Source: Nitrospirota bacterium (GTDB lineage Bacteria; Nitrospirota; 9FT-COMBO-42-15; HDB-SIOI813). From it: 42,237 nucleotides of DNA. Position 1 is the stretch's first letter. Each line of letters starts with the position of its first letter. The notes beneath the pieces were generated by a model. That model made no database searches. It saw only the letters and a list, made by a program, of their open reading frames with translations, and was not told the origin of the DNA. The translations under genes were made by a program, and so were the position numbers. The stretch lies in NCBI GenBank assembly GCA_023248395.1, contig JAHFEQ010000005.1, positions 1 through 42,237 of the forward strand, written 5' to 3'. Of this stretch, positions 34,616 through 37,999 are shown piece by piece.

Positions 34616-35515
34616 TCAACCATAGATTTCCGTAGGTATATCTGTGATCTCCTCTACTTTTTTGGCTATAAGGGTTAGTTCCTTTTCAGCGAGTGGGGTA
34701 ACATAGGACTCAGCGGGTGGCCTTGCAACTGTATAAATTTGGACAAGGCGTATCTTCCCTCCACTCTCTGATATCTCTTTAAGTAAAAGAGAGTAGCGCT
34801 CTATCTCATCCGGAGGTGGAGTAATCCCATCGATGTTATTAAAACAACTCTGAATAATAATAGGATGTCTTTGTGCGGTGAGTATTAAATTACGGACTAT
34901 GTCCTGCAACGGTACGTTGGTGCGAGAAACTTCTCTATAGTAGGCATCACTCCCTGCATCGAGTTTTGCCCAGACCTCGCCATTATGCTGATACATCAGG
35001 TCAATAGCATGCTGGACCTTTGGACGGTTGAGGCCAGAGGCATTGGTTATCAGTACAATGGGGAAGTTTCCCTTAATCCTTAGGACCTCTTCGACCACCT
35101 CATAGAAATAGGGGGATGTAGTCGGTTCGCCATCTCCGGATATGGCGATATCCGATAGATGCCTTAGTTCAGCAGGTATCCTGTCAAAAGGGGAGAGAGA
35201 GGATATCCGGCCTGTCTTGACTAAATCTAAGGTCTCTTTTAATTCATGGCATATATGCTGCAGAAAAGGGGACAGATTTATTTTCGGCTCAGCCGAAAAT
35301 AAATCTGTCCCCTTTTCTGCAGGGCCGCTTCTATCTACCTGGCAATAGATACAATTAAAGTTACATACCATATCCGGATTCAGGTTTATACCTATAGAGA
35401 TACCCCTTGACCTCCTCGAAAGGACAGGATATACATATTGATTTTCTTTAAATGAGCGGCTGTGACTTGTATAAGGCATGACATCAGGATAGCCTGGGGA
35501 GACTGGAGATGTCAA
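34616..35515 (-). CDS. Radical SAM protein (start may be ATG 35479)
   Basis: VLSRRSRG.SIG.N, CNFNCIYC, SGDGEPT, ITN, KLDAG. Confidence 0.9.
   Translation of the reverse strand: MTSPVSPGYPDVMPYTSHSRSFKENQYVYPVLSRRSRGISIGINLNPDMVCNFNCIYCQVDRSGPAEKGTDLFSAEPKINLSPFLQHICHELKETLDLVKTGRISSLSPFDRIPAELRHLSDIAISGDGEPTTSPYFYEVVEEVLRIKGNFPIVLITNASGLNRPKVQHAIDLMYQHNGEVWAKLDAGSDAYYREVSRTNVPLQDIVRNLILTAQRHPIIIQSCFNNIDGITPPPDEIERYSLLLKEISESGGKIRLVQIYTVARPPAESYVTPLAEKELTLIAKKVEEITDIPTEIYG
35258..35322. repeat. Perfect 65-bp palindrome (REP doublet-like) inside the radical SAM CDS
   Basis: CTGCAGAAAAGGGGACAGATTTATTTTCGGCT-C-AGCCGAAAATAAATCTGTCCCCTTTTCTGCAG; 32-bp arms are exact reverse complements. Confidence 0.9.
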
Positions 35516-35526
35516 GGTTCTATGAC

Positions 35527-35687
35527 CTAATACGAACGCAATAAATGTCTTTATACTGCGTTGGACTCCTCGGAAAATCCTCGACGTACCTCAAAAAGTA
35601 CGCCTGCAGTTTTCCTCGTCGTCCGCCTTGTCTAAAGCCATTTCTTACGTTCGTATGATGTCACTTTAGTTAATGCGTTTGTATTAG
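35527..35687. mobile_element. 161-bp MITE-like element with 18-bp TIRs and an internal rod hairpin
   Basis: CTAATACGAACGCAATAA / TTAATGCGTTTGTATTAG (16/18 match); nested stems ATACGAACG/CGTTCGTAT, GGAC/GTCC, GGAAAA/TTTTCC, CGTAC/GTACG. Confidence 0.65.
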
Positions 35688-37999
35688 TAACACTTGGAAT
35701 GTCCGCAGAAACTACACTTCTCGCAGCCTTCAGAGAATTCCATCTCGCAGCCGCAGTCAGGGCATGCGGCCCCTATCCTCCGGTCATGCTCCACATTTAT
35801 ATTCTCAGTGCCATCCTCTGATTTCCTCATCAGATACTCCATGAGGGAGTTTGCAATGGCATCTGCGCAGGAGTGTATGATATTTTTCCCAAGGCCGTAG
35901 GGTTTGTTGCATCGAATCCCGATGAGTTGCCTGATAACCGATTGTGGCGCTACGCCACTTCTAAAGGCAAGGGATATCAGCCTCCCGATAGCCTCGTTTT
36001 GTGAACCTTCGCATCCGCCTGCCTTCCCCATATTACAGAATACCTCGAAAGCCCCCCCCCTCTCGTCCTCATTGATAGTTACATACAGGTCACCGCAGGA
36101 GGTTTTCATCCGGTTTGTAACCCCGGTTGTAGTTTTTGGCCTTGGCCTTGGATGGATGATCTGGGGCGCCGGCTGTCCATTGGACAGACTCTCTTCTGAC
36201 TTCTGACTTTTGGCTTCCGGGTTAGGACGCGGGCTAAAGCCTGCGGCTACTTCTGTCTTCTGAGTCGTTCCTACATTCATCACCTGTTCTGCACGACTCC
36301 CGTCCCGATAAACTGTAATACCCTTACACCCCAGTTTATAGGCAAGCATGTACGCCTTTTTAACATCCTCTGCTGTTGAATTGTGCGGGAGGTTAATCGT
36401 CTTGGATACAGCGCTATCGGTATGTTCCTGAAATGCAGCCTGCATACGGACATGCCATTCAGGTGATACGTCATGGGCTGTCGCAAACACCGACTGCCAC
36501 CTTGCCGGTACTTCGGATAAGCCCCTTATAGAGCCATGATTGCCGATGATCTTCTCAATCAGATCATTGCTCAGGAAGCCTTCAGACCTTGCCACTTCGA
36601 GGAAGGCCTCCAGCATATAGGGGAGATGTTCACCCCCCATCACATTCTTATACCAGATGAGGCTGAACTCGGGTTCACAGCCCCCGGAGGTATCAGCGAT
36701 CATGCTCAAGGTCCCTGTTGGTGCAACCGTAGTGATATAGGCGTTTCTGAGATTTTTCCCCTCTTTCTGACAGACAGAACCTTCCCAGTTAGGGAACACC
36801 CCACGCTGCTGGGCCAGTCTCTCAGACTCACTATGCCCAATATCGCGTATAAATTTCATAACACTCCGGGCAGTTTCTATTCCTTCTTCAGAGTCATAAG
36901 GTATCCCCAGCTTAAAGAGCATCCGTGCGAATCCCATCACGCCAAGACCGATCTTCCTGTTCCCCTTGGTGACCTCTTCTATTTGCCGGATAGGATAATG
37001 ATTCATGTCGATCACATTATCAAGAAAGTGGATCGAGGTGCGCACGGTACGCTCAAGCCTGTTCCAGTCAATAATCCCCTTTCCGTCATTATAGGTCACA
37101 TGGACATCAAGGTTTATGCTGCCCAGGTTGCACGACTCATAAGGGATGAGCGGCTGCTCGCCACAGGGGTTTGTCGCCTCTATAAAGCCGACATGGGGAG
37201 TAGGATTGGCCCTGTTGGTCGTATCGATAAAGAACAGACCTGGCTCGCCATTCTTCCATGCATTAGCGGCGATCTTATTAAAGACATCTGTTGCGGAAAT
37301 TTTTGATATGACCTGGCCTGTCCTCGGATTCAGCAGCTCATAAGGCTCACCCCTTTCTACAGCCTCCATAAACCGGTCCGTAACAGCGACACTGATGTTG
37401 AAATTTGTTATCTCGCTCTCATTTGATTTACAATCTATAAACTCTAATATATCCGGATGATCAACACGGAGGATGCCCATATTGGCCCCACGTCTTGTCC
37501 CACCCTGTTTTACAGCCTCTGTAGCATGATTAAAGACCTTCATAAAGGATATAGGACCTGAGGCGACTCCCCCTGTAGTGCGCACAACATCATTTTTGGG
37601 CCTGAGCCTTGTGAAGGAAAACCCTGTTCCCCCGCCGGATTTATGGATGATGGCTGCCTGCTTTACGGATTCAAATATGCCGTCCATGGAGTCCTCAACC
37701 GGTAAGACAAAACATGCTGAAAGCTGCTGAAGCTCTCTTCCTGCATTCATCAGGGTAGGGGAGTTGGGGAGGAACTCTTTCTTTACCATGAAGCGGTAGA
37801 ATTCTTCCTCACTGCTTGTGATATCCGCATCAGGATGATAGAGGAGGTCTGCCTCTGCAATATTACGGGCGACCCTCCTGAACATCTCCTTCGGGTCCTC
37901 CACGACGTGCCCCTTATCATTCTTGGCAAGATAACGTTTCTCTAAAACCTTAATGGCATTTTGAGAAAGTAGCGGCTCAATAATCTCTTTTGTGGCCAT
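35684..37999 (-). CDS. nrdJ: Class II (adenosylcobalamin-dependent) ribonucleotide reductase with C-terminal TSCPD/Zn-ribbon region
   Basis: [55 protein letters not shown]-terminal CPDC..CSFC. Confidence 0.95.
36228..36250 (-). repeat. GTAG-type REP element in-frame in nrdJ
   Basis: GTAG-C-CGCAGGC-TTTA-GCCCGCG, translated as VAAGFSPR in the inter-domain linker. Confidence 0.65.

Follow-up and report, generated by a model that had tools for sequence, protein, structure and literature searches.

A palindromic dimer of TIRYT-type transposon ends lies in frame in a radical SAM gene of a Nitrospirota bacterium

We analysed positions 1 to 42,237 of contig JAHFEQ010000005.1 from the Nitrospirota bacterium assembly GCA_023248395.1; this whole 42,237-base stretch is hereafter called the window. 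Within it, a gene for a radical S-adenosylmethionine (SAM) protein contains a 65-bp palindrome, at 35258-35322, that is translated as part of the protein. The palindrome is a REPIN-like and MITE-like (miniature inverted-repeat transposable element) dimer of TIRYT-type transposon ends, located in frame in a permissive loop of the radical SAM protein. More specifically, we read it as a non-autonomous mobile element in which two inverted end repeats of ~23 bp, of the TIRtron kind, are placed head to head around a copy-specific centre of 9 nt, and we put the probability of this reading at roughly 0.8.

Results

The palindrome and the gene that contains it

An inverted-repeat search of the window identified three inverted pairs of at least 20 nt within 60 nt, of which the palindrome is the sole perfect one. 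It is composed of two 32-nt arms (35258-35289 and 35291-35322) that are 100% complementary and flank the single base 35290, with CTGCAG at both outer ends, just as an earlier note made from the sequence alone had described. The palindrome is real. Each arm harbors one copy of a conserved unit of ~23 nt, consisting of R-A-A, the 19-mer AAGGGGACAGATTTATTTT and Y, whose extent is based on position frequencies in 167 distinct contexts (see below). The left copy spans 35263..35285 on the plus strand and the right copy, which is inverted, spans 35295..35317 on the minus strand. Between them lies the copy-specific centre GGCT-C-AGCC (35286..35294), which is itself palindromic and is not conserved across the repeat family. 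The sequence GGGGACAG at 35268-35275 fits the consensus GGGGWSAS, and its complement is present in the other arm. When a 22-nt piece of the arm was searched with up to 3 mismatches, only the two arms matched in the window, and 100 shuffles gave 0 matches.

As single-stranded DNA the palindrome folds with -37.1 kcal/mol, compared with -5.9 ± 2.2 kcal/mol for 200 shuffles (z -14.4), and as mRNA its stem reaches -58.1 kcal/mol (z -11.3). The single arms fold weakly (-3.2 and -2.1 kcal/mol), with 5 and 11 of 200 shuffles, respectively, folding equally well. Neither GTAG nor CGTC, nor a complement of either, occurs within 35258-35322. A classical repetitive extragenic palindromic (REP) sequence with a GTAG/CGTC tag was thus rejected, as the tags are absent and the single arms are weak. 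The term "REP-doublet", under which the palindrome had first been classified, therefore keeps its second half only: the doublet is evident, but a single unit is not a strict REP and fits GGGGWSAS.

The host gene spans 34616..35479 on the minus strand, its start (MPYT) being placed by ortholog alignment, and the open reading frame (ORF) extends up to 35515. This ORF (34616-35515) reads CNFNCIYCQVDRSGPAEKGTDLFSAEPKINLSPFLQHICHEL through the palindrome with no stop and matches the Pfam family Radical_SAM (PF04055, E 2.5e-8), in agreement with the earlier placement of the palindrome in frame just after a radical SAM CxxxCxxC motif. Counted from the ORF start, the codons of the cluster motif CNFNCIYC are at 35342..35365 (minus strand); those of the element-coded peptide PAEKGTDLFSAEPKINLSPFLQ are at 35258..35323 (minus strand), the palindrome coming just after the motif. 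Because the DNA is palindromic, translation of the plus strand yields an almost identical peptide, in which Q replaces E at the centre. The second reading frame of the palindrome is open except at the centre codon of the coding strand, and the third has stops. The corresponding database protein, P0002 (251 aa), starts at MVCNFNC (35369-35371), inside the conserved N-terminal region; since orthologs start at MPYT (35477-35479), this public gene call is probably too short.

Homologues of the host protein number in the thousands (7064 at E ≤ 0.001 among 8000 scored), and the closest named ones are from metagenome-assembled genomes (MAGs) of Nitrospirae or Nitrospiraceae. No NCBIfam model came near its cutoff for this enzyme, and Foldseek matched the structural model to generic radical SAM folds (TYW1, PFL-AE) with TM scores of 0.5-0.6. 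The AlphaFold2 model, made from a 68-sequence alignment and numbered over 287 aa, has a mean predicted local distance difference test (pLDDT) score of 89.7 and a predicted TM score (pTM) of 0.88. Residues 53-67, PAEKGTDLFSAEPKI, are its sole segment to fall under a pLDDT of 50, and helix α1, residues 69-89, begins at LSPFLQHICHEL (LSPFLQ...). Thus, as modelled, the left arm and the centre probably encode a disordered surface loop, while the right arm (NLSPF...) is predicted to code for the start of helix α1, where native proteins have VDI(K/S)-type residues.

A dispersed repeat family with the same ends

The 19-nt core AAGGGGACAGATTTATTTT was scanned over one genome per species, and at least 136 stretches from unrelated bacteria contain it. 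Among the stretches listed, the hosts are Pseudomonas, other Gammaproteobacteria, Desulfobacterota, Nitrospirae, Coprothermobacterota, Aerophobetes, Planctomycetes and others. Elsewhere the 19-mer either forms inverted pairs or makes up both ends, in inverted orientation, of a ~0.8-kb transposase unit. In the 167 distinct contexts the repeat is conserved only over the ~23 nt given above, and the sequence upstream of this unit is purine-rich and otherwise unrelated. The loci listed include 56 distinct inverted pairs, whose spacers measure 3-188 nt and vary between copies; this upholds the proposal that the palindrome is an inverted doublet of a dispersed repeat. Near-complete palindromy (at most 5 unpaired bases) was found in only 8 of the 48 pairs with spacers of up to 70 nt. 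Spacer palindromy as a family-wide rule was rejected on this count; the fully palindromic form, as in the window, is a minority state, also present at, for example, loci L110, L051, L044 and L123. As a further observation, the outer part of the repeat recurs in partial tandem copies (AAAGGGGAC-like) that accumulate just outside many end repeats (examples are L014:3524, L022:2001 and L083:724), and these may reflect a cleavage or joining site.

The family shows no target duplication, as the mean longest flanking direct repeat is 1.44 versus 1.56 in shuffled sequences (n = 55). The CTGCAG of the window is the only 6-mer among these flanking direct repeats. It is self-complementary and therefore simply the outer part of the palindrome, and the CTGCAG target duplication considered in the earlier note was discarded. 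Y1/HUH enzymes of the IS200/IS605 family leave no target duplication. The absence of one here therefore fits a Y1/HUH enzyme.

Such an enzyme is encoded next to the repeat in other genomes. Many solo copies of the 19-mer lie upstream, at a distance of 13-40 nt, of genes whose products begin with MPRMGR... or MPRQAR..., and at the other end of the gene the stop codon is overlapped by a second copy in inverted orientation, the stop being inside the right repeat. The genes bracketed in this way encode proteins of 231-234 aa, all six of which matched Pfam Y1_Tnp (PF01797; E 1e-12 to 1e-14). In NCBIfam, the best match was the REP-associated tyrosine transposase (RAYT) model (REP_Tyr_transpos, NF047646) in 3 of 3 cases, with 72-75 bits, and the IS200 model scored 21-25 bits against a cutoff of 55. 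The link to RAYT-type Y1 transposases, which the earlier note had put forward, thereby holds. Matches to these transposases adjoin the motif at 29 of the 136 listed loci (tblastn).

The transposases are 51-58% identical to the first row of their alignment and keep the HVH motif (columns 60-62) as well as several invariant tyrosines, such as Y121, one of which is presumably the catalytic residue. Since the enzymes share only this level of identity, the repeat ends appear, at the sequence level, to be better conserved across phyla than the enzyme presumed to move them. A Pfam scan of the transposases at E ≤ 0.01 revealed no HTH-like (helix-turn-helix) C-terminal domain. The family is very large (7998 of 8000 scored clusters at E ≤ 1e-20); its clusters are named just "transposase" by their sources, and many are on contigs of 0.8-1.5 kb.

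One locus, L059:2001-2188, is a 188-bp unit with both end repeats and, between them, only N- and C-terminal fragments of the transposase gene. This deletion intermediate links the full unit to the short dimers. At the other extreme, locus L137 of Pseudomonas aeruginosa (NZ_CP116719.1, 11538-22227) has 12 motif copies in 10.7 kb, which bracket two transposase genes wholly inside the stretch and also form short pairs. The L137 record has 4 tblastn places for the transposase, and its motif copies are interspersed with small genes for toxin-domain, endonuclease and hypothetical proteins; the element is dense there, in an apparently cassette-like array. An integron attC site, suggested by the regular spacing in the Pseudomonas arrays, was rejected, as the element has neither the GTT nor the AAC core of the attC consensus; the spacing is regular because of the ~0.8-kb transposase units.

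These data also bear on a local origin of the palindrome, in which a fold-back or template-switch event would have duplicated native coding sequence in inverted orientation with no mobile element involved. Such an origin would account for the centre and the outer CTGCA/TGCAG being copy-specific yet palindromic, and for the element-coded KINLS at the place where native orthologs have KVDIK-like residues. However, the chance expectation of the arm piece in the window is 0, and an identical 19-nt core in the at least 136 unrelated-genome stretches, positioned at the ends of Y1 transposase genes, makes a local origin very improbable.

In other genomes, 14 long ORFs span a pair, of which one is a recognisable gene. 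This is L110 (301-353; contig JACRHF010000101.1 of a Nitrospirae MAG), where a dimer lies in frame in the gene for anhydro-N-acetylmuramic acid kinase (AnmK; PF03702, E 2.7e-46), with the reading frame shifting across its 15-nt palindromic centre. The same MAG has an intergenic copy (L038), and copies of the repeat look mostly intergenic.

Orthologs and the history of the loop

All ortholog evidence is at the protein level, and the loop was readable in 64 of the proteins P0001-P0068. Nine of these 64 loops carry EKGTDLF...KINLSPF: those of the window protein, P0001, P0003-P0008 and P0012. The eight other carrier clusters are 68-93% identical to the window protein, come from contigs and sources other than that of the window (ena, jgi, ncbi, lgn) and have the peptide in the same loop, with differing centres and left and right junctions. 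P0001, which is 93% identical to the window protein, has identical junctions and Q at the centre, which corresponds to the complement of the centre base and would stem from either a mutation or an inversion of the palindrome. As assemblers can generate perfect palindromes, a chimeric fold-back introduced in assembly has to be weighed. But the palindrome is internal to an intact, conserved ORF, and the eight other clusters encode its peptide at the same site, one of them with the same junctions, which leaves an assembly artefact hardly credible.

Further orthologs have altered or partial versions. P0015 is a point-mutated look-alike, KKGAGNFSDDRKSSLPLF, and P0010, P0013, P0009 and P0014 retain only LSPF or (K)INLS. 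Alongside these, we observed unrelated repeat-like peptides in the same loop of P0009 (SLRERDRVRVG) and P0014 (VIPTKVGIQNDGLILDSCFRRNDK) and a proline-rich insert in that of P0034 and P0061; judged by these sequences, several unrelated insertions seem to be tolerated in the loop. Most of the 64 proteins have a native loop of 19 aa, compared with 31 aa in the window protein. The expectation that ortholog alignment would show a new protein loop is thus borne out, but not that of a clean insertion of ~20 aa: the gain is +12 rather than ~22 aa, and native residues must therefore have been lost or replaced.

A second variable site of the host gene, GNFP (35060..35071, minus strand), lies before the LITN strand. 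At this site orthologs P0006, P0012, P0013 and P0037 have GHFPYF...ENMGSVP-type peptides, P0012 also has NVIPAQAGIQDADKRLDSCFRRNDNNSG, and the GNFP of the window replaces KGCFDDTK of the 93%-identical relative. GNFP may be the scar of a repeat-like element.

The earlier note had called the insertion recent. This part of its account does not hold, since the 93%-identical ortholog has the same junctions and relatives at 68-79% identity carry the element; by these protein comparisons the insertion does not appear recent. Gain and loss appear recurrent because close relatives have partial, decayed or native loops. In a tree made with both variable loops cut out, by a quick method with modest supports, all carriers but P0012 fall in one clade of 13 rows (SH-aLRT, Shimodaira-Hasegawa-like approximate likelihood ratio test, 84). 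The clade also holds the native-loop P0011 and the partial P0010, whose path to the carrier P0005 is ~0.03. P0011 is in an unresolved fork with the carriers P0004-P0008 (branch lengths ~0.03), and at least six changes of loop state are needed on the tree.

Could a single old insertion explain this distribution? It would have occurred in the ancestor of the Nitrospirota-like clade and been inherited vertically, with only point changes or deletions thereafter and no mobility at the site. The grouping of the carriers in one clade and the use of the same loop in every one of them are in line with such a history, as P0015 resembles decay by point mutation and P0010, P0013, P0009 and P0014 resemble partial remnants. 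Yet it leaves the placement of P0012 outside the clade, the native-type P0011 among the carriers, the six or more state changes and the variation of junctions and hairpin centres to be accounted for, and a native loop whose residues have already been substituted cannot be regained by deletion. Either one ancient insertion or repeated insertion could be mimicked by allelic recombination. We consider a single ancient insertion a real possibility, albeit an unlikely one. Our tentative reading of these sequences is that the element was inserted at least twice, or exchanged between alleles, and was trimmed in addition.

A peptide search with residues 60-99 against a set of 5.8 billion proteins returned 9 candidates, all of them radical SAM orthologs; it missed the AnmK case and is therefore uninformative on other carriers.

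Symmetry of the arms

In the window, the two arms are in register such that third codon positions face second positions of the opposite arm and first positions face each other. The arms can therefore not be kept perfect by selection acting only on the peptide. We infer that perfect arms leave three options, namely recency, re-insertion and correction at the DNA level. The centres of the carriers also bear on symmetry. Four of seven centre types (SAEP/SAQP, LAEP, SPGG and SLGG) are encodable with one unpaired base, which is possible for only 2611 of 160000 tetrapeptides (1.6%); of the other centres, the three-residue SQE leaves 2 unpaired bases, SRQG 5 and SGQG 7. As LAEP and SLGG are each one residue from another type, about two centre types are independent. 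Thus, as judged from the protein sequences, the variable centres of the carriers still appear palindrome-compatible. In a cruder whole-protein test, 7 of 10 rows (the window, the eight carrier clusters and the decayed P0015) scored above all 100 shuffles. This test, which uses degenerate back-translation, has a high null (mean 17.5, maximum 27), making it unusable for the other repeat peptides.

Symmetry of this kind might instead reflect a use to the host, whether as an mRNA stem that adjusts expression or serves as an RNase III cleavage site, as a DNA binding site, or as a functional loop beside the Fe-S cluster. The arms are perfect even though the insertion predates 7% protein divergence, the codon pairing means that peptide selection alone cannot hold the symmetry, ortholog centres differ and are still palindrome-compatible, and the RNA stem is very stable, all of which a useful hairpin or peptide would explain. 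However, close relatives do well with native, partial and decayed loops (P0011, P0010 and P0015, respectively), unrelated repeat peptides occupy the same loop in P0009 and P0014, and the loop is modelled with low confidence. On these grounds a host function is improbable.

Comparison with known systems

The closest known system is the TIRtron. Di Nocera et al. 2013 (PMC3733652), in the accessible parts of the paper, describe RAYT-like genes (TIRYT) that lie between long terminal inverted repeats (TIRs), the units being termed TIRtrons; GGGGWSAS is common to their repeats, which make up families of moderate abundance and are often dimers, with 26 examples. In the accessible part of Quentin et al. 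2018 (PMC6006769), TIRtron/TIRYT is equated with subclass 2.1. The family studied here shares with TIRtrons, as these sources portray them, a RAYT-like Y1 gene between terminal inverted repeats rather than REP hairpins, with GGGGACAG fitting the GGGGWSAS consensus; repeats, moderate in number, that are also present singly, as dimers and in clusters; and a protein longer than classical RAYTs, with a putative C-terminal extension (here 231-234 aa versus a core of ~150 aa). It differs in that the TIRYT protein is described with an HTH-like C-terminal domain, whereas none was found here in the Pfam scan at E ≤ 0.01, and in that the accessible parts of PMC3733652 report intragenic GTAG/CGTC REPs but no in-frame TIR dimer.

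Bacterial MITEs are similar to the palindrome in being short non-coding derivatives formed by the inverted ends of an autonomous element, with L059 representing the deletion intermediate. They differ in having a target-site duplication and a DDE enzyme; here there is no such duplication, and the enzyme is a Y1/HUH single-strand transposase. IS200/IS605 elements have subterminal hairpins, while the ends here are inverted repeats and the IS200 model scores far below its cutoff.

REPIN-RAYT systems (Bertels and Rainey 2011) likewise consist of a mobile inverted doublet that forms one long hairpin and a Y1 partner flanked by the same repeat (as outlined in the available text of PMC5581495). In classical REP systems each REP unit is itself palindromic (20-40 nt, imperfect), and a genome has tens to hundreds of copies, for the most part extragenic; the single unit here is not a palindrome and the window copy is intragenic. 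Also in contrast to the REPIN-RAYT systems of that text, the end sequence of the window repeat is common across phyla, with transposases 51-58% identical, and transposase gene copies can be multiple per record. It is plausible that the transposases are "Group 1" RAYTs, for which the same text gives a wide host range.

Translated palindromic repeats have precedents. A 2024 review (PMC10969869) summarises, in its accessible sections, in-frame Rickettsia palindromic elements (RPEs), and those of PMC3733652 describe GTAG and CGTC REP dimers inside known genes, where they encode 20-30 residues. Within the compass of these two texts, the likeness to the window lies in a palindromic repeat in frame in a conserved enzyme gene, ~20 residues, a loop site and a probably functional protein. 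RPEs, as summarised, are ~100-150 bp and reside in Rickettsia, while the element here is 65 bp, has no CGTC/GTAG tag and an identifiable candidate transposase, and is found in a Nitrospirota-like free-living bacterium. Perfect inverted repeats in protein-coding sequence are also known from the mitochondria of Nematomorpha (PMC6649704, accessible portion); these are organellar and much longer, and a transposase association is not stated in that portion. Literature searches with the peptide and DNA motif strings returned, among the titles listed, nothing on bacterial repeats, with figures and old supplements of PMC3733652 being unsearchable, so that the repeat may already be in print.

Other features of the window

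An imperfect inverted repeat at 35523-35663, with 34-nt arms that are 82% complementary and 73 nt apart, sits between a class II ribonucleotide reductase gene (35684-37999, minus strand) and the radical SAM gene and has no Rfam match. The sole Rfam match of the whole window is a 5S rRNA gene at 8-124 (RF00001, 111.9 bits). The remaining genes are housekeeping genes, namely those for methionine synthase, sulfite reductase, ATP sulfurylase, cytochrome c maturation and glycogen.

Discussion

Our data suggest a mechanism in which the dimer would have been moved in trans by a RAYT-like Y1/HUH transposase (TIRYT), with a single-stranded hairpin as the intermediate, by analogy with IS200/IS605 and REP/RAYT chemistry. 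The insertion site would be the loop that connects the Fe-S cluster motif with helix α1. The insertion may have survived as, whichever way the element is oriented, one of its frames is open, and as the loop tolerates changes of length. It appears old enough for related Nitrospirota-like lineages to have it in common, and the element would have been gained, trimmed or lost repeatedly in this loop.

Several points weigh against reading the palindrome as such a mobile dimer. No Y1 transposase was found in the window, either by tblastn or in a Pfam scan of its 29 larger ORFs, nor was a second repeat copy found in the 42 kb. In all 3 transposases scored, the NF047646 match is just below the RAYT cutoff of 80 bits, and in a PDB sequence search the transposase is only weakly similar to solved TnpA structures (E 0.07 for ISDra2 TnpA). 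Residence in frame is rare for the repeat family, given the single recognisable gene among 14 pair-spanning ORFs. The net gain of 12 aa differs from a clean 65-bp insertion, and at least one further event is needed. Finally, the accessible sections of PMC3733652 report no experimental demonstration of TIRYT transposition.

A bolder version of the mobile-dimer reading, which we regard as doubtful, is that the loop following CxxxCxxC is a recurrent landing site, colonised several times independently by the dimer and by unrelated palindromic repeats. The symmetry of the arms would then be kept by hairpin-templated correction or by repeated re-insertion by a Y1 transposase that prefers the site, and the right arm would have been taken over as the start of helix α1. 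If this were true, alleles in near-identical backgrounds, be they filled, trimmed or empty, would form a natural record of the chemistry by which TIRYT elements insert and excise.

The element family and in-frame palindromic repeats are both already known. The window adds a clean case outside Rickettsia of selfish palindromic DNA that is translated, for which a candidate transposase partner can be named, and related genes show its stages, from the full element through a trimmed remnant to the native loop. For annotation, the element accounts for a recurrent peptide, …KGTDLF…KINLSPF…, which can be expected in unrelated proteins and spurious ORFs. The stages seen in related genes make the site useful for the study of how Y1/TIRYT elements enter and exit genes and of how inserted DNA becomes ordinary protein.

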